Source: Cyanobacteria bacterium P01_D01_bin.156
GTDB taxonomy: Bacteria > Cyanobacteriota > Cyanobacteriia > Phormidesmidales > Phormidesmidaceae
Reading direction: 5' to 3'
DNA length: 64,000 bases
Assembly: GCA_039024555.1 (NCBI GenBank)
Contig: JBCCQQ010000013.1
Location: forward strand, 1-64,000
Shown here: positions 30,903-45,360 of the stretch, in pieces
Layout of the letters: each line of letters begins with the position of its first letter
Numbering within the stretch: the first letter of the stretch is position 1
The notes under the pieces: model-generated
What the model saw: the letters and a program-made list of their open reading frames with translations, nothing else
Told to the model about the DNA's origin: nothing
The model's database searches: none
Position numbers and translations under genes: made by a program

Positions 30903-31045
30903 AATTTGACTGCTTTCGGGCTTGAGCAAGTCCGTTAAAGAAACCTTAATTTTTAGTTATCTTGGGGGTTAGCAGGGGAACTAAGCTGGGAAATTCAGCA
31001 TAATCGGGATAGGTAAACCAGGATTTAGAGCAAGTCAGATAGCCC

Positions 31046-31432
31046 ATGCCCGATATCAGTGACTGTTTAACATCAACGTGCCCAATTCAGTTTGTCGTAG
31101 AGCTACTGGGCAGTAAGTGGTCGATTTTAATTTTGCGAGAGCTTTGGGCGCAAGATCGCCGTACCAATGAGCTGCTAACTGCTTTACCTGGTATCAGTTC
31201 TAAAACCCTGACGGTGAGGCTGCGCAGTCTGGAGGAGTATGGTTTGATCAGCCGACGCGCCTATGGCGAGGTTCCTCCACGGGTGGAGTACGCTATCACA
31301 GGTAAAGGGAAAGAACTACAACCAGTAATGGCCGCGCTACATCAGGTGGGGCAACAATGGCTCACCCAAGATAGCTGTGCCTGCCCGCTAACAGCCGATG
31401 GCACTATGGAGCCTGCACAGGTCCTAAGTTAA
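31046..31432 (+). CDS. HxlR-family regulator
   Basis: CPIQ, LGSKWS, ISSKTLTVRLRSLE, VPPRVEYAIT. Confidence 0.9.
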   Translation: MPDISDCLTSTCPIQFVVELLGSKWSILILRELWAQDRRTNELLTALPGISSKTLTVRLRSLEEYGLISRRAYGEVPPRVEYAITGKGKELQPVMAALHQVGQQWLTQDSCACPLTADGTMEPAQVLS

Positions 31433-31523
31433 TGAGGCCCTATTGTCACCATCGGTCCCATAAGGTGATCACTAGGCAAGTTAATGAGTTCAGACACCTT
31501 TTCAAGTGCAAAACCTATCATTC

Positions 31524-32387
31524 ATGACAACAACCATCAAGCCACATGTGCAAGATTTAGGCGGTTTTGAAGCCCGACGTCTACTTCCCAGTGACCAACG
31601 TATGATGGTCGGTCCATTTATTTTCTTTGATCATCTAGGACCCGCCGTATTTCCTGCAGGGAAAGGTGTGGACGTTCGGCCTCACCCCCACATCAATCTG
31701 GCAACCGTTACCTACTTGTTTGAGGGAGCCTTACTCCACCGAGATAGTTTAGGAACAGTGCAAGAAATTCGCCCTGGTGCAGTGAATTGGATGACAGCTG
31801 GACAAGGGATTTCTCACTCAGAGCGTTCTCCAGATGCAGACCGTGCAGTAGAGTCTCGGCTACACGGCATTCAAACTTGGGTAGCACTACCTGAAGAATC
31901 GGAAGAAACTTCCCCCAGTTTTCACCATCATCCTGCTAAAGACATTCCTACCTGGGAGAGCAATGGAGTCACTGTTACTTTAGTTGCCGGTGAAGCCTAT
32001 AATCACGTTTCCCCCGTCAAAACCTTTTCTCCTATCCTGTATCTAGATCTGCAATTTCCTAAAGGCGGTAGCTTTACCCTTACAGCTCCTCATACAGAAC
32101 GGGCTGTGTACAGTGTGACTCCAGGAATTTCCCTTGATGGCAACCCCATAGAACAGCATCGTCTAGTCACATTAGAACCACAACAGTCAGTAGAGATTTC
32201 GGCTGGTTTAGGTGGGAGATGCATTGTCATCGGTGGGGAACCGCTGGGCACACGGCATAAGTGGTGGAATTTTGTCTCTAGCCGTCCCCAGCGTATTGAA
32301 CAAGCTAAACAGGACTGGCTTGACTGGAAGTTTGGTCAAGTGCCAGAGGAAACCGAGTTTATCCCGCTACCGGATACGCTCTCTTAA
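31524..32387 (+). CDS. Pirin-family protein
   Basis: GPFIFFDH, PHPH, HRDSLG, WMTAGQGISHSE, WWNFVSS. Confidence 0.93.
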   Translation: MTTTIKPHVQDLGGFEARRLLPSDQRMMVGPFIFFDHLGPAVFPAGKGVDVRPHPHINLATVTYLFEGALLHRDSLGTVQEIRPGAVNWMTAGQGISHSERSPDADRAVESRLHGIQTWVALPEESEETSPSFHHHPAKDIPTWESNGVTVTLVAGEAYNHVSPVKTFSPILYLDLQFPKGGSFTLTAPHTERAVYSVTPGISLDGNPIEQHRLVTLEPQQSVEISAGLGGRCIVIGGEPLGTRHKWWNFVSSRPQRIEQAKQDWLDWKFGQVPEETEFIPLPDTLS

Positions 32388-32505
32388 AACCGCAGCATCA
32401 GTTTCAACAACAGGCTAACCTAACGTGCTCTGCTCTGCATAGACCTTCCCTAAACAGTTTAGGTAGTGTCTCTCACTTCTGGGGTAGATTAGCCTGTGCC
32501 TATTG

Positions 32506-33453
32506 CTAGCAGGTAGCCGTCTGCACCCACATACGAACCATGGTACGAGGCTGGCTAGGATACTCAGTGTAGGCCCTGCGATCATGGGCTACACATCGAT
32601 TATTTACCCAAAGCTGATCGCCTTGTTCCATCCGCAATGTGTGTACATGCTCAGGTATTTCCAATGCCGCATCTAACGCATCGAAGGCCTTTAGCTGCTG
32701 CGTAGTAAGGGGTGCCTCGGCACGATGGTGCCCTGTTTCAATCCAATAGCGCATATAGCGAAAGGTGAATTGGCCAGTGGGCGCAAATACAGGAAACGCG
32801 TTAGCACGAAGGCAGCTTAAATCTTTTTCTGCTCCGGGTGTAACTACATCGCGGATAAACGGCTGATACAGCTGCTCTAGATGCTGGGGAGCAGTAGCTG
32901 CTAAATAGTTGTGCACGGTGACAGCGCTGCATAGGCGACTCTCTCCTCCTGTTTTGCCAGGCTGTAAACACAACAAACTGATAATATCTGGTTGTACCAA
33001 ACGGGCGGAACTATCTGTATGAAACCCCGTGGCTGAGCACGTCATACTAATGGGTACAACTTCCTTTTTATAGCAAACACCCCGATCTCTCACATCATAG
33101 AGACGGCCATAGTTTTCTAACACGTTGCCCAACGCTGTTCCGATGGCTAGATAAACCAATCGCTGCAGTGAGCGTGGCTGCTCTGCCACTAAATCACGGA
33201 CCAAACAAAAACCAGGGCCATGGGTCAATCGTTTATGGATCTCAGTAGCTAAACTGGCTATCCCAGGCAATGAAAGAGTTCCCCACTGCCACGCTTGCTC
33301 AGGATTATCTTGTCCTTTAGCCCAAGCATCTAATTTTTCAATATCTGATCCGATTGCAGCAGATGGCAGACATTGCCACAGAGAATCTGTAGCCAGCTCG
33401 CGTACCGTACAAGCGAGTGGCCTGGAACGCACAGCAGACAATGTACTAATCAT
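32506..33453 (-). CDS. TauD/TfdA (clavaminate-synthase-like) Fe(II)/2-oxoglutarate oxygenase
   Basis: FHTDS (HxD), LLCLQP..GGES, NNRCVAHDR, RTMVRMW. Confidence 0.88.
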   Translation of the reverse strand: MISTLSAVRSRPLACTVRELATDSLWQCLPSAAIGSDIEKLDAWAKGQDNPEQAWQWGTLSLPGIASLATEIHKRLTHGPGFCLVRDLVAEQPRSLQRLVYLAIGTALGNVLENYGRLYDVRDRGVCYKKEVVPISMTCSATGFHTDSSARLVQPDIISLLCLQPGKTGGESRLCSAVTVHNYLAATAPQHLEQLYQPFIRDVVTPGAEKDLSCLRANAFPVFAPTGQFTFRYMRYWIETGHHRAEAPLTTQQLKAFDALDAALEIPEHVHTLRMEQGDQLWVNNRCVAHDRRAYTEYPSQPRTMVRMWVQTATC

Positions 33454-33752
33454 GTAGAAATATCCCCTGATGGAAAAGTGTTGAATTAGAAATCAGAACT
33501 GATCATCCCAAAGTAGGTACATTTTTTGATGCGTATATCCTGGTACAGGAAACCAAACAACAAAACACCTGGCATACTGAATATACGCAAATAAGGATTA
33601 TGGGCTTATACATGGGGCAAAATAGCCCACCGTAAGAGCCATATCTGTGCCAGAAAGTCAGGACAACAGGCATTTCTCGAAAGCTTTAGCTGTAGCAAAC
33701 ACACAAACAACAAAATAGGTGTGAGTCGCTACATACCAAAAATTATTTAATG

Positions 33753-33812
33753 CTACCCTCACCAATTCTGGAGAAGACCTAACGACAAGATTCCAGAATT
33801 GGGTCAAGGTAG
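33753..33812 (-). terminator. Long stem-loop downstream of the methyltransferase gene
   Basis: CTACC..CCAATTCTGGA / TCCAGAATTGG..GGTAG inverted repeat. Confidence 0.5.
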
Positions 33813-33878
33813 TATCAAAATTGTTGATTGAGATTATCTACTTAAATGCAGATAATCTATCAATTGTTTAGCCATTGG

Positions 33879-34628
33879 CTAATGTTCAACCACAAACAAC
33901 ATATGTAAGGGAGTCCCTAGCAACGGCCCAAAGAAATCGGGATCTAGGTCAATATGTTCAGGTTGCACTGCCAGTTCCTTAATGACAGGTAGCTTAGTCC
34001 AACCTGCCGTCCTTAGAGCGACAAAGTAGTCTTCTAGGGTTTTATGAACACAGCGAACCGGCACATCAATGCCATCTCGCCGCCAAATACGACCTTCTAG
34101 AGTGCGATCGCGATCGCTCATATAAAGTGAATTCTCAGGATTAAAGAAAAAAGGATATTCCTGGGGGCGCAACCAGGGTAAGGAGGGATGAGGCACGGTA
34201 AATACGAATTTCCCTCCAGCTTTAAGTAGCCTACGCGCCTGACTTAGAACGGTTGTCATTTCCGCTCGCGTCAAATAGTTAAACAAAAAGATAGCGGCGA
34301 TGCGATCGTAATTACTGCTTTGCAAATGCATTAGATCTGTTGCACTGCCCTGTTGCCAAGAGAGCGCAGTATCATCTGTAGCTATCTGAGCGCGACCAAC
34401 CATCTCTTCTGAGAGCTCTATGCCCAAAACGGCAGAAGCACCACGAGCCCTCATTTGTCTGGCTAAATAGCCTTCTCCACAGCCTAGGTCAAGCACGTTT
34501 GCACCAACCATCGGCTCTAGGGCCTCCAGCGCAAATGGACGAGCTGTAAAGTCAGAAAGTAATACTTTTTCTGTTCTTACCCATTGAGCTGCGGCCTGAT
34601 CATAAATTTGTTGAGTTGTTGTACTCAT
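33879..34628 (-). CDS. Class I SAM-dependent methyltransferase
   Basis: VLDLGCGEG, GIELSEEM, LKAGGKFVFTVPHP; start overlaps the stop of the upstream gene (ATGA). Confidence 0.9.
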   Translation of the reverse strand: MSTTTQQIYDQAAAQWVRTEKVLLSDFTARPFALEALEPMVGANVLDLGCGEGYLARQMRARGASAVLGIELSEEMVGRAQIATDDTALSWQQGSATDLMHLQSSNYDRIAAIFLFNYLTRAEMTTVLSQARRLLKAGGKFVFTVPHPSLPWLRPQEYPFFFNPENSLYMSDRDRTLEGRIWRRDGIDVPVRCVHKTLEDYFVALRTAGWTKLPVIKELAVQPEHIDLDPDFFGPLLGTPLHMLFVVEH

Positions 34629-35440
34629 GCAGTCACACCTCCTTGAGTCAAGGCTCGCTCATACATCCAGTCCCAAAACTTGGCTCGCAAGTCGAGGGCG
34701 GCTAACATCCCTTTTCGAAGGTTAGACTGGCCCTCTGGCGTCACGGCCAGATCGGCAGCTATGTCCAATAGGGTTTCTTGGTGAGCATCGTCTACAAGGG
34801 TGTGCATCGAGAAAAAGACCGTATCTCGTGCGGATAAATTAGGCAATAATGAAAGTGCTTGCAAAATGGGACGATAGCACTGACTAACAATACTTTCTGT
34901 GCCCAATCCAAGGGCGCCAATTGCCTCTTCAATGGAGCCTTGACTTAACACCGTCAACAACTGGTTTCGCCAATAAATAACCTCTAGAGCTGTGCGCTCT
35001 AGATCGGTATCCAACACCCCAATTGCCCGCTGAAAGCGCTGAAATAGCTGAGGATGAGGAATTCCTAAAATCCACTCTGACTCAATTCCAGCTTTCGCGA
35101 GTGTCAGAAGGTCATCATCAGGATAGCTACCTGACTCTTCGTCAAGATTTTGCAACAATGCTTCACGATGATCGGCACAGTCTAACCGAGAGATAACTGC
35201 TTTGAGAAACGTTGGGAAATAGGTTGAATAGCCGTAGTACTGACGGGCAAAATCCGTCATGGCCCACTGCAAATCAGGTACATTTCCCGTCGCCAGCGCC
35301 TTTAGATAAGGATGCTGAAGCGCACAGTGGTGACTAGCTTCTTCGGAAAGTTCTTGCAGATATGCTTGCACACCCATGTATGTGGACAAGACATACTGGT
35401 GACTCACCGTAGAATCATGAGCGATAGAAACAACAGACAT
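34625..35440 (-). CDS. Heme-oxygenase-like diiron enzyme (HDO; CADD/PqqC/TenA-fold iron-containing redox enzyme)
   Basis: HPYL, NLDEESG, PHPQLF, LGTESIV, FFSMHTLVDDAH (H-x3-D-x2-H), FWD. Confidence 0.85.
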   Translation of the reverse strand: MSVVSIAHDSTVSHQYVLSTYMGVQAYLQELSEEASHHCALQHPYLKALATGNVPDLQWAMTDFARQYYGYSTYFPTFLKAVISRLDCADHREALLQNLDEESGSYPDDDLLTLAKAGIESEWILGIPHPQLFQRFQRAIGVLDTDLERTALEVIYWRNQLLTVLSQGSIEEAIGALGLGTESIVSQCYRPILQALSLLPNLSARDTVFFSMHTLVDDAHQETLLDIAADLAVTPEGQSNLRKGMLAALDLRAKFWDWMYERALTQGGVTA

Positions 35441-36022
35441 AGTAGAAAGACCCTGAACAAAATTCAAAGCAACTTCGTAGAGACAGTTCGCAAAGCTTAT
35501 CTAGGACGTAGGCATAACAAACAACTACAACAAAAAAGATGCTACATAGAAATTCTACGCAATTGCATAGAATTTCTATGCTAGACAACATTTGCTGTCA
35601 GCCCGTTTCAAGCTTGTTATCTACCCCTAAAGGAAGGATAAACAACAGGCTGTATAACACAAAATTTTCAGCGTGAGTTTTTAGAACTCAGAGGATACTT
35701 ACCTAAATTGACTAGAAACATGCTTAACTCAAGCAATATTTAAGGGATATAGGTACTTCCCGATAATTTCGGTAAATATACTCATTTTAGTCAAAATATC
35801 TTAATTATTGTCCTGGATAATTACACGCAGATTAGCATGCCTACCCCCTAAAGAGATATCCGTATATTCAACTATATGCTATTAAAAATCTGGCACAACA
35901 TGATACGTAACACCTTTTTATTCAGGGGTTTAGCAGTTTTATTAAGAGATTCAGTGCTTTCCCTGATGCAGTATTTTTGTTTGCCAAACAACAAAATCAA
36001 AAGCTCAGAGGTTTTGATTAAC

Positions 36023-36096
36023 TCGGTATTAATACCGAATAATATAAGTTTTCCAAACAGTATTTTTTGCCTTGGTGCAAAAAAATACTGTTTGGG
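36023..36096. promoter_or_regulatory. Perfect 16-bp palindrome and a long hairpin upstream of H-NOX
   Basis: TCGGTATTAATACCGA at 36023-36038; CCAAACAGTATTTTTTGC / GCAAAAAAATACTGTTTGG at 36053-36095. Confidence 0.55.
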
Positions 36097-36205
36097 AATA
36101 CATTCAAGGCAAAAATTGATTTAATACTTAGAAAGTCAGGAGGTAACCTAGCGAAACCGATGTCGTAAGATCAGCCACATAATTTTATATAGAGGCAGCA
36201 ATAAT

Positions 36206-36757
36206 ATGTACGGATTAATTAATCGGGCTATTCAGGACATGGTGTGCGAGCACTACGGTGTTAGCCTATGGGAAGAAGTCAAACTCAGGGCGGACGTTGA
36301 AGAATCACGTTTCTTGGTACTGCACTCGTACCCAGATGATATGACCCATCGGCTCGTTAAAGCGGCTAGTGATGTGTTACAGCTTTCTAGCAGTGAGATT
36401 ATGGCCGCTTTCGGACGCTACTGGGTGGAATATACCGGTAAGGCAGGATATAAAGAGCTAATAGAAATGGCCGGTGATACATTACCTGACTTTTTAAGTA
36501 ACCTCGATGAGCTGCACTCAAGAGTAGGCGTCCAATTCCCGGAACTTAAACCTCCCGAGTTTAGCTGTGACCAAATAGATGGTCAAAATATTGAGCTACA
36601 TTACCAATCAACCCGCGATGGGCTGGCTCCCATGGTCCTTGGTTTACTAGAAGGTGTGGGCGACCGTTTTCATCAATCTGTTCAAGTCACTCAAGTTGAA
36701 GATCGTCAAGATGGTGCAGATCACGACGTTTTTCACGTTAGATACGAATCTGAGTAG
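36206..36757 (+). CDS. H-NOX (heme NO-binding) protein
   Basis: MYGLIN start, YPDDMT, FGRYWV, proximal His in LDELHSRV, PPEF, YxSxR (YQSTR). Confidence 0.95.
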   Translation: MYGLINRAIQDMVCEHYGVSLWEEVKLRADVEESRFLVLHSYPDDMTHRLVKAASDVLQLSSSEIMAAFGRYWVEYTGKAGYKELIEMAGDTLPDFLSNLDELHSRVGVQFPELKPPEFSCDQIDGQNIELHYQSTRDGLAPMVLGLLEGVGDRFHQSVQVTQVEDRQDGADHDVFHVRYESE

Positions 36758-36760
36758 GTT

Positions 36761-38188
36761 ATGGACTCTTTTTCCTACACATTATCCCCAAAACATTTTA
36801 CTCAAGCGTTTCCATTCCACCTTGTACTAGATTCTTCGCTAAAAATCGTCCAAACTGGCTGTGTTCTGGAGCGTACTCTAGACCGATCATTAATAGGAGA
36901 TAATGTAGAAGACTATTTTGTCATTTCTCGTCCTAAAATCACCTGGGACTTATCTGTTATTAAAAACAAACAGCAATCGCTGTTCGTCCTATCGGTCAAA
37001 GAGTCAAACATGATTCTGAAAGGGCAGATGGTGTGGGATGCATCCATAGAGAAGCTATTTTTTCTATGTTCAGTCTGGGTGCATAAAGCAAATGATCTAA
37101 AAGTTCTAGGTCTCAAATTTCAGGACTTTGCGCTTCATGATACTACATCAGATTTTATAATTTTACAGCGCACTAGCCAGATGGCCTTGGAAGATGCCCA
37201 AGCACTTACTCAAGAAGTACAGCTGCAGAAAGAACAAGTTGAGACACTTTTAAAGCAACAGGAAAAATTGACTAAGGAGGCTCACGAGCGAGCACAAATC
37301 TTAGAAGAAACATTGATAAATTTGCGTAAAACTCAGCTACATCTGGTCCAAGCTGAGAAAATGAGTGCTTTAGGTCAGCTCACAGCTGGTATTGCCCATG
37401 AGATCAATAACCCTCTGGCTTTTATTAGCGGCAATCTTCAGTATCTCGAAGGGGATATTACGAACTTGCTCAAATTTGCAGCAACGTACCAAACCCAAAA
37501 TAATTATTCATCCCCTTCTTTGGAAGAGGCTTTTGCTCAGTTAGATTTTGAGTTTCTAGAAGCAGATTTGCCAAAGCTTTTAAACTCTTTGGAAGCCGGT
37601 AGCGATCGCATCATGGAAATCGTTAATGCACTACGGACATTCTCTCGTCTAGATGAAGCACCTATTAAACAAATAGATATCCATGAAGGACTGGATAGCT
37701 CGCTGCGGCTACTACAGCATCGCTTTAACGAAAAACCGCATCGATCAGAAATTGTTATTCATAAACGCTACTTCAATTCTCTGCCCAGCATTGAATGCTA
37801 TGCCGGGCAGCTCAATCAAGTGTTTATGAATGTGCTGGCAAATGCAGCTGATGCCATAGAAAATTCCTATCAGGAACATCCGATGATTCAGATTGCTACC
37901 GACCAACTTGACAACCATTGGATTCAGGTTTCTATCTTGGACAATGGCTCTGGCATTCCAGAAGAGGTCCAAAATAAAATTTTTGATCCGTTTTTTACCA
38001 CTAAACCAATTGGCAAAGGGACAGGATTAGGTATGTCCATTAGCCGACAAATTGTTACAGAACAGCATAGTGGGCGATTTTATTTTCAAACTCGTAGAAA
38101 TGCAGGCACCCAGTTCTTTATCGAGCTACCAATTAGTCAATCCTTGCCCGCTGCTAATACAGCCAATGAGTCGATGCAAGAAAATTAA
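36761..38188 (+). CDS. HNOBA/PAS-domain sensor histidine kinase
   Basis: [19 protein letters not shown] (H-NOBA); [47 protein letters not shown]. Confidence 0.92.
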
Positions 38189-38270: not shown

Positions 38271-38612
38271 CTAAAAAATCAAGAGATTTAACGGTACTGG
38301 ATCTCCAAGCCAGGTCGCATGATCCGTATGATCTGCCAGATCGTTTCCGGTCAATCCATGCACAAGCACAGTAAACTCTCCTCGGTTGTTGTCCAACCAT
38401 GGAATCAGTCGATCAAATTGGGTTTTATCAAAGGCTAATTGACAGCTCCGACAAGGGTGCGGACCCACTGGCTTTTGATGGACTCGACCCACATTTACCC
38501 CAAATAATTCTCCAGCCTGCTGACATAGGGAAGCTGCTTTTTGGGTGGAGTTGCCATCGAAATAAACATGGGCGTGATACTGGTCATAAATGTTGGTGGG
38601 ACGTTTTGTCAT
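38271..38612 (-). CDS. DOPA 4,5-dioxygenase family protein
   Basis: YHAHVYF, VGPHP, WLDNNRG..VLVHGLTG.DLADHT..A.WLG. Confidence 0.88.
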   Translation of the reverse strand: MTKRPTNIYDQYHAHVYFDGNSTQKAASLCQQAGELFGVNVGRVHQKPVGPHPCRSCQLAFDKTQFDRLIPWLDNNRGEFTVLVHGLTGNDLADHTDHATWLGDPVPLNLLIF

Positions 38613-39009
38613 AGGTGAATCACATAAAATATCAGACATCTTGTTACCAATATAGGATTCGTGGCATTTCAGGCCGAAAATCCCTAGTTCAGCCTGTAGC
38701 ATGGTTATCAAAATACCCCAGAGTACGGGCCGTTTTTAGTCGCGGTTACTTTTTACATAGGTTCAGTTAGAGCTTCTTGGAGGCGGGTCTGAACCAAAAA
38801 CAAGTCGAGCCTATCAGGCAAATTGGAGCAACGCATTTGGCTAGCCTAAACAAAACATAATTTAGGTCCATAACCTAAATCATGACACCCCCGCAGGATG
38901 AAGCTAACTACAGTCTATTGAGTAGGCAAGATAGCCCTGCACCCATACGCTGTGGGGAACAGCATTAAAACACTGTAGCCATTGCTAAAGATTCAGCAGG
39001 CTCTAGTGC

Positions 39010-40095: not shown

Positions 40096-41145
40096 ATGGT
40101 TAGCATAGAGAAAAAGCAATTGCTAAATCACTATCCACGGGGATGCACCTTTGCCAACGACGATTGGGATGCGATCGCACCGTTCTGGTTTCCCGTTGCC
40201 TTTAGCCACGAGGTAAACGATCAACCAGTATCAACCACCTTGCTGGATCAGCGCCTGGTGGTATGGCGCACGAGCCAAGGGGTATCCGTTGCCAATGACC
40301 TATGTCTGCACCGCGGTGTACCCATGAGTATGGGGCAGGTCAAGGGCGATCAGCTAATTTGCAAGTACCACGGCTTTCACTACGATGCCAGCGGCAAATG
40401 CACCCTGATTCCGGCCAATCCCCAAGCAAGTATTCCAGCCCGCCTATGTCTAAAAGCCTATCCTGTCCGTGAAGCCTACGGTCTGGTGTGGACTACCCTG
40501 ACGGGCGATGGCAGTGATTCAAACCTCCCCCAGCTACCAGAATGGGACACCCCAGACTACCAGCCCATATTGCCGAACAGCTTAGATATTAATGCAGCTG
40601 CAGGTCGGCAAATGGAGGGTTTTTTGGATGTGGCCCACTTTGCCTGGGTCCATCATGAAGCGTTTGCCGACCGGGATAAGCCAGAGGTACCCCCCTATAC
40701 CGTTACAACGACACCGATGGGGTTGCGAGCTGAGTATACTAGTAATGTTAGTAATTTCCCTAAGGGATTACAGCATCGGGCACCCGCTGATTTTCAGTGG
40801 CTGCGCGTATTTGATGTGTTTCTACCCTTTGCCGCCATTTTGCGGGTGCATTTTCCAGATGGGGGACGGCTGTGTATTCTCAATGCGCCATCACCTATGT
40901 CCGCTCGAAAAACTCGGTTATTCTCTCCCCTGTGTCGTAATTTTGACCAGGATCAGCCCCTAGAGCCTGTCTACGAATTTAATCGACAAATTTTTACAGA
41001 AGATCAAGAGGTTGTGGAAGCTCAATACCCTGAGGACTTACCTTTGGATTTACGTACTGAGTGCCACATTGAAGCCGATAAAACCTCTATTGCCTATCGC
41101 AAGGGACTGGCACAGCTAGGACTTAGCAAAGTGTACACGGCTTAG
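40096..41145 (+). CDS. Rieske non-heme iron oxygenase (VanA/NdmA-like demethylase clade)
   Basis: CLHRG and CKYHG Rieske ligands; DVAHFAWVH and TEDQ mononuclear iron ligands. Confidence 0.9.
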   Translation: MVSIEKKQLLNHYPRGCTFANDDWDAIAPFWFPVAFSHEVNDQPVSTTLLDQRLVVWRTSQGVSVANDLCLHRGVPMSMGQVKGDQLICKYHGFHYDASGKCTLIPANPQASIPARLCLKAYPVREAYGLVWTTLTGDGSDSNLPQLPEWDTPDYQPILPNSLDINAAAGRQMEGFLDVAHFAWVHHEAFADRDKPEVPPYTVTTTPMGLRAEYTSNVSNFPKGLQHRAPADFQWLRVFDVFLPFAAILRVHFPDGGRLCILNAPSPMSARKTRLFSPLCRNFDQDQPLEPVYEFNRQIFTEDQEVVEAQYPEDLPLDLRTECHIEADKTSIAYRKGLAQLGLSKVYTA

Positions 41146-41246
41146 GGGTGGGCATACTGGGGGTGCGTCGACGCATTGAGTAACCCTTTAGAGCGCGCTC
41201 AACCCTGTCGGTGGTGCATTCTTATCGTCACATCCTGACTATCAAT

Positions 41247-42401
41247 ATGTTTAAAGTAGCGGTTGGCCATAGCATTGACCCTGATTCTAGTATGGCCATT
41301 GATGAGGCTTTAGGTCAGTGTCAACAACAGCTGGCTGGTATCGTGCCCCAGGCTGGTTTGCTGCTCAGTGCAGTGGATTTTGACCATGGTTTAATTTTGC
41401 GGAAAATTCAAGCCACATTTCCCGGTATGGCGCTGATTGGCGGTACTACCGTTGGGGAAATGTCCTCCGTCCTGGATTTCCAGGAAGATTCTTTAAGCCT
41501 GATGCTGTTTGCATCGGATGAAGTGACGATTCAATCAGGGCTGGGGACTAGGGTTTCTCAAGATGCGATCGCAGCCACTCGACAAGCTATTCCTGACCTC
41601 AACGGTAGACCAGCTAAATTATGCTACACCGTGGGAGAAAGTCTTGGTGTAGATGGTGTTGACATTGTTAACGGCCTCCAGGCCGCCCTAGGTGAAGATG
41701 TAACCATTTTTGGGGGGCTGACAGGAGATGACTGGAAATTCAAACAGACCTATCAGTTCTTTGGTGACCAAGTCCTGAGTGATGCTGTAACTACCCTGGT
41801 TTTTTCCGGTAATCTCATGATTTCCTGCGGTGTTGCCACAGGGCTAAGGCCCATCGGTCGTAAAGGAATTGTTACCAAATCCCAGGGTAATACTGTGCAT
41901 ACTATTGACAATCAATCCGTAAAGCATTTTTATGCTCAGTATATGGGGGATAGTTCCATTGCAGATGTGGGTGGTGCCTGGGGGGGGTCCGTAGCCGTCT
42001 TTGAACCAGGAGAAGAGAATTTTTATGTGCGAGGTCCTAATAGTCAGGATGAAGCTTCCGGTAGTATAGACTACTTTGGCCAGGTTCCAGAACAGGCCCA
42101 TATTCAACTTACTGAATCTAATACTGAAAGTTTGTTAAATGCCGCGTCCCAAGCTCTCAAGAGAGCCCAGGCCGACTATCAAGGCACATCTCCCAGCGTT
42201 GCCCTCATTGTTTCCTGTGCTGCTCGCATGAAATCCCTAGGAACGCGTACTCGCGAGGAATATGCGGTTGCCCAATCCGTATTAGGCAAACTCCCCAATA
42301 TAGGGTTCCATGCCTACGGAGAAATTTGCCCCCTAGGTACAACTGGAAAATCGTTTTATCACAATGAAACGTTCACCACCGTACTGCTAGGTACCCATTA
42401 G
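41247..42401 (+). CDS. FIST-domain (NosP-like) sensor protein
   Basis: [44 protein letters not shown] plus FIST_C. Confidence 0.9.
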
Positions 42402-42403
42402 TC

Positions 42404-44086
42404 GTGGCAAGTTCCCATGCAGTCGTTACAGCTACATTAACCATGGAGGATCTGACCCCAGACGAGTTACATCAGCGAATTGCAGACCTGGAACGGAGCA
42501 ATCGCATTTTAGAAAAGAAACTAGCCCGATCAGAAGCCACCAGGGGCGAGTTAGAAACCCTAAGTCAGCGACGTGAACTGATGCTAAAACAGCTGCTGCG
42601 GGAAGTAGAAACGGCCAAAGTAGATCTCGAAACTGCTAAGGAAGTTGCTGATAAAGCCAATCAAGCCAAGAGTGAATTTTTGGCCAACATGAGCCACGAG
42701 CTACGCACTCCCCTAAATGGGATTTTAGGCTACGCTCAAATTTTGCAGCGAGATAGCCAAACCACCCATCAACAAAGAAGCGGTCTGGCCATTGTGCAGC
42801 AGTGTGCCCAGCATCTGTTGACCCTGATCAATGATATTTTAGATCTTTCAAAAATTGAGGCCCGTAAATTAGAGCTACATCCTGAACCTTTGGGGGTGGA
42901 TGATTTTCTCTACGGCATTAAAGAGATTTGTCGGATTAAAGCCGAACAGAAGGATCTCACGTTTCAATATGAAGCGGTCAATCAGCTACCTACTGCCATC
43001 AAAGCAGATGAAAAACGTCTGGGACAGGTGCTCATTAACCTGTTGGGGAATGCTATCAAATTTACGGATCGGGGCCATGTTGTTCTTAAAGTGGGGTCTT
43101 TAGATCCTGCTACCTCCCCTAGGTTGAGTTCCCAGGAATCTTCTAACCAAGTTCGACTCCAGTTTCAGGTAGAAGATACGGGTATTGGTATGACTCCGCC
43201 CCAGCTGGAGAGTATCTTTTTGCCTTTTGAGCAGGTGGGCAGTGCGGAGCGTCAGGCCCAGGGAACTGGCCTAGGGTTAGCCATTAGTCGCCAGATTGTA
43301 GAACTAATGGGTGGTACCTTACAGGTTAAAAGTACCTACGGTGAAGGCAGTACTTTCTGGTTTGATCTAACCTTGACCGTTGCTGACGACTGGCAAGGTC
43401 GCCACAATGAGCCGTCAGTCTTGGATACGATTGTTGGTTATGGGGGCGATCGCAAACGGATTTTAATTGTCGATGACCGTTGGGAAAATAGATCTGTTTT
43501 GCGCAATCTACTCACCCCCCTCGGGTTTGATATCCTCGAAGCCGAAGATGGTAAAGCGGGATTGGAACAGGCAACAACCCAGATACCCGATCTGATTATT
43601 ACCGATCTGGTCATGCCAGAAATGGGCGGCTTTGAAATGACTCAGCAACTCAAACATTCTGACGCTACTAAGGACGTCCCCATTATTGCCTCCTCTGCCA
43701 GCGTGTTTGATTTTGACCGTCAGCAAAGCTATGCCGCGGGCTGTAATGAATTTCTCCCGAAACCCATCCAAATCGATGAACTCTTCGGTTATCTGCAGCA
43801 GCACTTAAATCTAGTGTGGCAGCATAGCGCCGCCGTCGCCGTTGAAGACAATAACCCCACTGGGAAAACCATTACCCTACCCCCCATTGCCATACTCAAA
43901 ACCCTACATGCCACCGCCGAAGCAGGCTATATCCTAGATGTTCAGACCATGGCAGAGCAGCTATTAACGGAACACGAAGCATTTGCTAGAAAAATTTTAG
44001 CCTTTGTGGACGAATTAGACGACGAAGCCGTTGTTGACTATATTGCCCCCCATCTAACAGAGTCTGCAGGAGGTGAAGCCCAATGA
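42404..44086 (+). CDS. Cytoplasmic hybrid histidine kinase (coiled coil-HisKA-HATPase-REC)
   Basis: [46 protein letters not shown]. Confidence 0.93.
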
Positions 44087-45360
44087 CACCCCCAAAAATA
44101 ATCGCTAGCTTATCCAGCACCTCCGAGCAAGGCGGCCTCACTTGCAAGACACAAGATAAGCAGTCGATTTTAATTGTTGACGATAACCCCAACAATGTTA
44201 AGGTCCTCTGCGATCTTCTCAATAAAAACAATTACCGCGTTTCCATTGCTAAAAGTGGAGAGAGTGCCCTTAAAAAAGTGGCACGCTCATCTCCAGACTT
44301 GATCTTATTAGACATTATGATGCCCGGTATTGATGGCTTTGAAGTGTGTTCTCGGCTCAAAGCAAATCCGGATACTAAAGATATTCCCATTCTTTTTATG
44401 ACGGCTCTTTCCGATACCCTCAACAGGGTAAAAGGACTCAGCTTAGGCGCTGTTGACTACATTACTAAACCCATTGAACATGAAGAGACCTTAGCCCGTA
44501 TCCAGGTGCACCTGACCCTGCGTCAAACCCAGGCACAGCTGGTACAAGAAGAAAAAATGGCAGCACTAGGTCAGCTGGTGGCCGGTGTCGCCCATGAGAT
44601 TAATAACCCTCTAAACTTTATCTGTGGGAATTTAGAACCTGCTGTAGACTACGCCAAGTCTCTGTTAGAGCTGCTGCGCTTATATGAGGACAATACGACT
44701 TCTCCTTCAGCAGAGATTGCCAACTATGCTGAAGAGATTGAACTGGACTATATTCGCCAAGATTTTTTGCGGTTGCTCAATTCTATGGTGGTAGGTGCAG
44801 AACGCATTGAGAAAATTGTGCGTTCACTGCAGCTGATTTCACGAGTGGATGACTCTGTGCGCAAGCCAGCGGAACTACAGGATGGTTTAGATAGCACCCT
44901 GATGATTTTGCACAATCGCTTAAAAATACAGCCTGGGCGGCCTGCGATTGAAGTGGTTAGAAAGTATGAGCCATTGCCCTTAGTGCAGTGCTATCCTGGC
45001 AAAATCAACCAGGTTTTTATGAATTTGATCGTTAATGCCATCGATGCCATTGATGATAAGTGTTCTACTTTATCTACTGAGGAGCTAGAGACCGTAGAGC
45101 CTTCATTATTGATTTCAACAACTTTGGAAAATGAACAGGCTGTCATTACTATTTCAGATAGTGGAACCGGCATTCCTGCTAATATTCAACAGCGCATTTT
45201 TGATCAGTTTTTTACGACAAAACCAGCTGGAAAAGGAACAGGATTGGGCCTGGCTATTTCCCACGCCATTGTCACCCAAAAACACCGAGGAGAACTTACG
45301 TTTAAGTCTCAGCCAGGTATCGGTACAGACTTCATTATTAAATTACCGCTACTGGTCTAG
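44083..45360 (+). CDS. REC-domain histidine kinase
   Basis: [41 protein letters not shown] overlap with the upstream kinase. Confidence 0.93.

Follow-up and report, generated by a model that had tools for sequence, protein, structure and literature searches.

We describe here a cassette of three enzyme genes that lies head-to-head with the genes for a haem sensor and its histidine kinase, at positions 32506-38188 of a 64,000-nt stretch of contig JBCCQQ010000013.1 from Cyanobacteria bacterium P01_D01_bin.156 (the window, in whose positions coordinates are given). On the reverse strand, a heme-oxygenase-like dimetal oxygenase (HDO; 271 aa, 34625..35440, its start codon the ATG at 35440), assigned by Pfam (PF14518 Haem_oxygenas_2, 9e-17), a structure model and fold matches, is followed by a ToxA-like class I S-adenosylmethionine (SAM)-dependent methyltransferase (MT; 249 aa, 33879..34628), assigned by Pfam (Methyltransf_25), alignment and its best PDB profile match. 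The HDO stop and the MT start share ATGA, confirming the translational coupling proposed in the initial annotation. The third gene of this strand encodes a TauD-clade Fe(II)/2-oxoglutarate (2OG) oxygenase (315 aa, 32506..33453; PF02668, E 6.5e-31); because it starts 425 bp beyond the MT stop, its coupling is looser than that seen in many relatives. On the forward strand lie an Alr2278-like H-NOX haem sensor (183 aa, 36206..36757; PF07700 HNOB, 7e-52, with a PDB match and a tree) and an HNOBA-HisKA-HATPase_c histidine kinase (475 aa, 36761..38188; Pfam, and identity to kinases described below). The open reading frame (ORF) list and Pfam bear out the annotated positions and domains of all five genes. 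A divergent promoter region of ~770 bp had also been proposed: the gap from HDO start to H-NOX start is 765 bp (35441..36205), but a shared promoter is not shown, since a consensus scan found fewer sites there (8) than in shuffled sequence (11.9); a terminator scan was likewise at chance level. As annotated, no nonribosomal peptide synthetase or polyketide synthase was found nearby among the 14 of 30 ORFs scanned in 24000-48000. Positions 31000-37825 are matched without differences by one contig assembled from run X1; as the window DNA may itself come from X1, this match argues only against a local mis-join.

The three enzymes constitute one conserved unit. Our fusion search drew on 21 longer MT relatives and on 145 proteins from a 50%-cluster library (E up to 1e-30); 55 proteins had at least 380 aa, and 32 of them carry HDO, MT and TauD in the window's order within a single chain, the remainder being HDO-MT (11), MT-TauD (5), a fusion of the second subfamily described below (1) and MT only (6). 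Fusions occur in Brasilonema, Microseira, Dolichospermum and Ca. Kentrum, in Thalassiosira exigua and Lacrimia lanifica, which we take to be a diatom and a diplonemid, and, from a 34-Mb contig, in the red alga Pyropia yezoensis. Identity to the window's domains is 26-41% for HDO, 35-44% for MT and 29-34% for TauD. Calmodulin-like EF-hands are present in 13 of the 21 longer relatives and EF-hands also in two proteins from the library, and the Ca. Kentrum fusion combines EF-hands with a globin. There are also fusions of receiver (REC) domains, as REC-MT (P0123, P0164) and REC-Hpt-HDO-MT (P0244). Together with the cyclic nucleotide (cNMP)-binding motif that precedes the HDO in 52 of 164 related loci, the Ca2+, receiver and globin domains of these relatives have what looks like the anatomy of a regulated signal synthase.

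Whether the window's arrangement recurs depends on the subfamily. Its own orthologs, subfamily A, were sampled at 164 further loci, of which 80 are the best of 153 relatives in genomes, 80 the best of 235 in metagenomes, and 4 come from a single-protein HDO search. The set includes duplicates and, with the window, amounts to 38 lineages at 72% identity; its record titles name cyanobacteria, Myxococcota, Planctomycetota, Alphaproteobacteria and others. A small cupin adjoins or is fused to the HDO in 112/164 loci, an MT in 52/164 and a TauD enzyme in 45/164 (L016 doubtful), with none of the three in 19/164. An H-NOX gene was near 0/164, of which 103 had at least 2 kb of upstream sequence, and this result, taken alone, would refute the earlier interpretation that the cassette is linked to H-NOX. 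The screen was limited to the best 80 + 80 relatives and thus samples subfamily A only. A single-protein HDO search of 401 genomes found 5 and likewise missed the second subfamily, for which profiles were needed.

Several forms of locus deserve separate mention. The commonest, at 91/164 loci, is an HDO + cupin module with neither MT nor TauD. In the window's order, a fused HDO-cupin subfamily of ~440 aa, resembling SznF and GrbD in layout, is found in 9/173 genomes; these two forms come from L002-L165, L205, L206 and L212. At L168-L170 and L316 an HDO-cupin fusion is followed by MT and TauD, placing four parts in three genes, the layout nearest to SznE/SznF. A CRP-type regulator (cNMP plus helix-turn-helix) lies upstream of HDO-cupin pairs whose HDO has no fused cNMP domain at L032:566-1258 and related freshwater loci. 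Frameshifted or split cassette copies (two in G491, the MT in G552, the HDO in G486; L202, L203, L213, L201) may be sequencing errors or decay, and the large ORF clusters 1, 3, 6, 7 and 13 were dropped as shadow frames.

A profile search of the window's order gave matches in 19/173 genomes, and the distant HDOs among them comprised nine HDO-cupin fusions and two operons (G567, G552) of MT, HDO, H-NOX and HNOBA kinase. These operons define subfamily B, with the same MT family, a distant HDO and a different 2OG enzyme: HDO-B is 25-28% and its MT 44-50% identical to the window's, the MT being the marker common to all subfamilies. Of 401 genomes in the phylum, 12 have a member of the MT family and 32 have H-NOX; in 8 of those 12, among them the window's genome, the two lie within 2 kb of each other. 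Without that genome, H-NOX is present in 7/11 MT-family genomes versus 24/389 others (p 2e-6, a value that is overstated because the seven genomes are kin and probably represent one event). In family f7 the MT occurs in 63/301 genomes with H-NOX beside it in 49/63, and in the order of G248 H-NOX is beside the MT in 10/14 genomes. The H-NOX link of the MT family, kept in three cyanobacterial groups, is real, lineage-dependent and well above background. Beyond these groups, H-NOX was absent from all four MT loci found in 141 genomes belonging to the phylum of G837, sampling outside cyanobacteria being thin and subfamily B not searched there; viral contigs yielded only 4 weak (23-25%) methyltransferases. 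The initial annotation had read the locus as a synthase-plus-receptor module whose orthologs would be H-NOX-linked elsewhere. What stands of this is that the trio is a unit, that its family is linked to H-NOX and that a sister subfamily carries the link; what falls is the link in the window's own subfamily.

The B operons run in one transcription direction with the enzymes preceding the sensor, and four of them hold an HNOBA-containing gene of ~930 aa between HDO and H-NOX, two of which were scanned and read HNOBA-GAF-PAS-GGDEF-EAL. The third enzyme gene of B loci encodes a protein with an H-x-D...H...R-x-S motif, whose model (of low confidence, pLDDT 64) matches only 2OG oxygenases among the matches listed, HalB/HalD being among them. 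Sequence searches of Pfam, NCBIfam and the PDB gave no match for it, a profile comparison did not relate it to the TauD enzyme, and in P0122 it is fused to the MT. Because subfamily B thus replaces TauD by an unrelated protein of 2OG fold, the constant unit is HDO, MT and a 2OG oxygenase. As to surroundings, the B operon often adjoins a gene pair that we presume to be allophycocyanin-like (25/57 regions; L261, L263, L265 and others), and L269 has the same site with H-NOX and kinase, its enzymes lost. L349, L352, L357, L364 and L366 carry MT-HDO-B pairs with neither H-NOX nor 2OG gene, downstream of a DHDPS-family gene.

In both trees, from which the frameshifted MT of L213 was omitted, the window MT groups with three A-type MTs (support 99) and apart from the B group. 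The H-NOX tree uses 48 of the 76 rows collected, those of f7 thinned; in it the window H-NOX belongs to a short-kinase clade of 33 members (98/99), as does every one of the 23 B-linked rows. Since the MT belongs with subfamily A, outside B, the H-NOX link seems to have arisen twice; this suggests that the window represents a separate recruitment, of a second lineage to the same sensor type, the alternative being a chance adjacency.

The HDO carries a three-His/three-carboxylate (3H/3C) site of E102, H129, E182, H213, D217 and H220. Of 31 aligned family members, 30-31 retain these ligands, and H38 and R252 are conserved as well. The motif described for the HDO superfamily is E-H-E-H-D/E-H (PMC11363339), and the protein has both this motif and the heme-oxygenase-like helical bundle (model pLDDT 90.5) of a member. 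A fold search with the model returned HrmI (Z 24.3; root-mean-square deviation 2.6 over 222, 17% identity), CADD (Z 24.3) and BesC (Z 23.7) ahead of SznF (Z 15.9, rank 23). The best sequence matches are BesC and CADD, far below the family cut-offs, and identity with BesC was rejected at 29 bits against 500. The HDO profile had no sequence match to SznF, nor had the cupin profile. As the initial annotation noted, the HDO has no SznF-type cupin: none is fused to it, and a search of the 99%-complete genome found no cognate one (best 25.6 bits, against at least 146 for full-length cognates).

For the MT the best PDB profile match is ToxA (E 1.6e-24). The TauD enzyme has the H-x-D...H triad and 2OG arginine of its clade, with ligands H145, D147, H290 and R303 invariant in 19 sequences; its best PDB matches are FrbJ (E 5e-47) and 7N7V (E 1e-43), and with the H-x-D kept there is no halogenase motif.

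H-NOX and kinase together make an ordinary sensor pair. Nostoc Alr2278 is the closest PDB match of the H-NOX (E 6e-66), which has, as annotated, the proximal His (H104), YxSxR (Y133-x-S135-x-R137) and no distal-pocket Tyr: Met143, aligned with Met144 of Alr2278, occupies what we take to be the distal-Tyr position. H-NOX proteins without this Tyr are described as selective for nitric oxide (NO), and H-NOX domains also bind carbon monoxide (CO) (10.1101/2022.02.14.480389). The window H-NOX is accordingly predicted to bind NO or CO, not O2. The kinase is 44-52% identical in its kinase part to those of the B operons and has no receiver gene next to it. A search of the window's genome for PF02898, the oxygenase domain of NO synthase (NOS), gave no match, with controls matching in 2/14 genomes; 4 B-type genomes likewise yielded no NOS (five linked genomes in all).

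Beyond the kinase, a DOPA 4,5-dioxygenase-family gene (38271-38711) converges on it; such a gene did not accompany related cassettes at the loci screened. Two kilobases past the kinase, 40096-45360 holds a VanA-like Rieske oxygenase, a FIST protein, a hybrid kinase and a receiver-kinase; the FIST protein scored 71 bits with the NosP model (cut-off 450), and the region is a possible second haem/NO sensor. A second H-NOX operon elsewhere in the genome is also faced by a Rieske oxygenase (L172:8714-9805).

We tentatively favour the reading that the trio is one O2-, SAM- and 2OG-dependent pathway whose product or by-product is a haem ligand of the facing H-NOX, most likely NO. A small amino-acid-like substrate would be N-methylated by the MT on an amine or guanidine, N-oxygenated by the HDO, with the substrate itself binding iron as in HrmI, and then oxidised next to that nitrogen by the TauD enzyme, freeing NO or a labile N-oxy compound; NO would bind the H-NOX and change kinase activity. 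NO production is what we infer here, and with it the substrate, the order of steps, N-oxygenation, the electron source and the direction of signalling. In the B operons the sensor has its own kinase and cyclic di-GMP (c-di-GMP) outputs and the enzymes head the operon, so they are placed as a source would be. We favour NO as the output because the form with Ca2+ sensor and globin parallels syNOS, because no NOS was found in the five linked genomes, and because there is precedent for a methyltransferase plus HDO giving rise to NO (PMC11705231). A wider claim would have bacteria and microbial eukaryotes share the trio as a dedicated NO synthase, non-haem and NOS-independent, that is gated by Ca2+, cyclic nucleotides or phosphorelay, is wired to H-NOX in cyanobacteria and, as an EF-hand fusion, is a candidate for the Ca2+-dependent NOS-like activity reported in diatoms; it seems to us rather unlikely to hold as a whole.

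A number of observations weigh against NO as the product or against the H-NOX coupling. An extra Glu on aux alpha2 (Glu189) is described as a predictor of SznF-like N-oxygenases (PMC7848743), and the window HDO has no Asp or Glu at 64-83, nor is one conserved in 40 A-type or 31 family sequences, the position being judged by spacing and by alignments to BesC and CADD and not by residue-level alignment to SznF. This argues against SznF-type chemistry and not against N-oxygenation, which remains compatible because HrmI N-oxygenates with a plain 3H/3C site; it is described as lacking the seventh ligand, with the substrate amine on Fe1 and a polar lysine pocket (PMC13108848). The fold scores, moreover, tie the N-oxygenase HrmI with the C-C-cleaving CADD and BesC, and no reductase domain was found in the cassette or in the fusions scanned. 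On the side of linkage, besides the unlinked A loci, H-NOX was found anywhere in only 2/24 A-type or fusion carrier genomes, most of them incomplete assemblies; 14/63 f7 genomes have no H-NOX beside the MT, 3 of these at contig ends; the six nearest relatives of the window H-NOX have no cassette beside them; and the wider A clade has support 95 in one tree and 69 in the other (quick method). Two distant loci (L314:8192-13870, L386:8619-17662) place HDO and MT in surface-glycan clusters, before an ATP-grasp-like gene (weakly matched by Pfam at one locus and unmatched at the other) and near a DegT (amino-sugar) aminotransferase, a context that suggests a stable organic product. They also hold an ORF of 273-280 aa with a 2OG-like motif (by eye; no Pfam match), and no H-NOX was seen beside L314. 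Lastly, N-monomethylarginine (NMMA) is reported to have inhibited diatom NO (PMC1370914), a poor fit to a methylarginine intermediate.

The strongest rival reverses the direction of the signal: the H-NOX/kinase pair would be an input, NO sensing one of several interchangeable controls, and the product of the trio would be stable, a modified amino acid or acyl unit formed for example by hydroxylation, BesC-like C-C cleavage and methylation. We consider this possible, if on the doubtful side. In the REC-MT and REC-Hpt-HDO-MT fusions the enzymes stand downstream of kinases, genomes that yielded no H-NOX include carriers of EF-hand and cNMP forms, and the 3H/3C site, the BesC/CADD-like fold and the ATP-grasp and amino-sugar context just described would suit such chemistry; the enzymes of the window and of B loci, however, have no receiver domain, and the B operons put the enzymes before the sensor and supply the H-NOX with a second effector that makes or breaks c-di-GMP. 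It is distinctly unlikely that the adjacency in the window is accidental, a mobile A cassette having landed beside an H-NOX operon with only subfamily B truly coupled. That account would agree with the unlinked A loci, with the divergent and not operonic layout, with G439, which has other genes upstream of its HDO, and with G560, which encodes one of the six H-NOX proteins nearest to the window's and carries an A trio on a different contig. It has to contend with a neighbour from the very H-NOX/short-kinase clade used by B cassettes and with a crude positional chance of ~0.001, an estimate weakened because the window was picked for this adjacency.

That the enzymes remove or recycle the signal, or cleave C-C bonds to liberate a different haem ligand, for instance CO, is improbable. 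A globin is present in one fusion, H-NOX domains bind CO, as noted above, and HDOs without the seventh ligand are described as often cleaving C-C bonds (PMC7848743), but it is hard to see what a methyltransferase and a 2OG oxygenase would do in NO removal, and no result points to CO. Least credible by far is a CADD-type, self-sacrificing p-aminobenzoate synthase: CADD is a joint best fold match, yet the match to TIGR04305 is weak (56.9 bits against a cut-off of 200), the Tyr27 that CADD is reported to sacrifice (PMC9522330) aligns with Leu46 of the window HDO, and there were no folate genes among the conserved neighbours scanned.

If NO is the output, the trio may be an unrecognised route to an NO signal. 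Where most bacterial H-NOX systems obtain their NO is described as unclear (PMC4436077), and diatom extracts are reported to have a Ca2+-dependent NOS-like activity whose enzyme is only guessed at (PMC1370914); for both questions the cassette family is a concrete, assayable candidate, as three small genes or as one EF-hand fusion (cyanobacterium, diatom, red alga). Were the product something other than NO, a single-chain three-enzyme pathway in bacteria and eukaryotes, repeatedly under second-messenger control, would still be an undescribed signalling output with new HDO chemistry. No description of the cassette was found in the literature searched, most subscription papers lying outside it, and the HDO network tables of PMC7848743 may assign its cluster. 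By the sequence marks of each, the enzyme set appears to be none of SznF, CADD, BesC or NOS, and we rate the system as new in kind and its function as putative.

Comparison with known systems sharpens this picture. The SznE/SznF (StzE/StzF) pair of the streptozotocin pathway, the product of which can decay to NO (PMC11705231), shares with the window a methyltransferase and an HDO, a likeness of enzyme class, and the H-x3-D-x2-H ligand spacing; relatives of the cassette add the HDO-cupin pair or fusion. The analogy drawn in the initial annotation breaks down in detail, as the window HDO lacks the seventh Glu and a cognate three-His cupin and is nearer in fold to HrmI, CADD and BesC, while a TauD enzyme and the sensor linkage are added. 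The lysine N-oxygenase HrmI/BelK is alike in being the top fold match, in its 3H/3C site and in the pairing of HDO with 2OG oxygenase, the partner of HrmI being the 2OG oxygenase HrmJ. It differs in its low identity, and the HrmI system as described in PMC13108848 includes no methyltransferase, no regulatory fusions and no link to H-NOX. BesC (with BesD) and CADD are close in fold and give the best sequence matches, and the B-type 2OG protein has HalB/HalD among the fold matches of its low-confidence model; against this stand the distance from both family cut-offs, the CADD Tyr27 that is not kept and a TauD enzyme without a halogenase motif. The logic of source plus sensor is that of NOS and H-NOX signalling in Silicibacter TrichCH4B (PMC4436077), and syNOS, described as joining a Ca2+ sensor to an NO-oxidising globin (PMC12922734), is matched by the Ca2+ control and fused globin of the cassette's relatives; the window differs in having non-haem chemistry, no flavin reductase domain and no NOS oxygenase detected in its genome. 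With Nostoc Alr2278 and its HNOBA kinase the window shares an H-NOX that is an ordinary member of the group, and it departs from that system in a short kinase without receiver and in the biosynthetic cassette that adjoins it.

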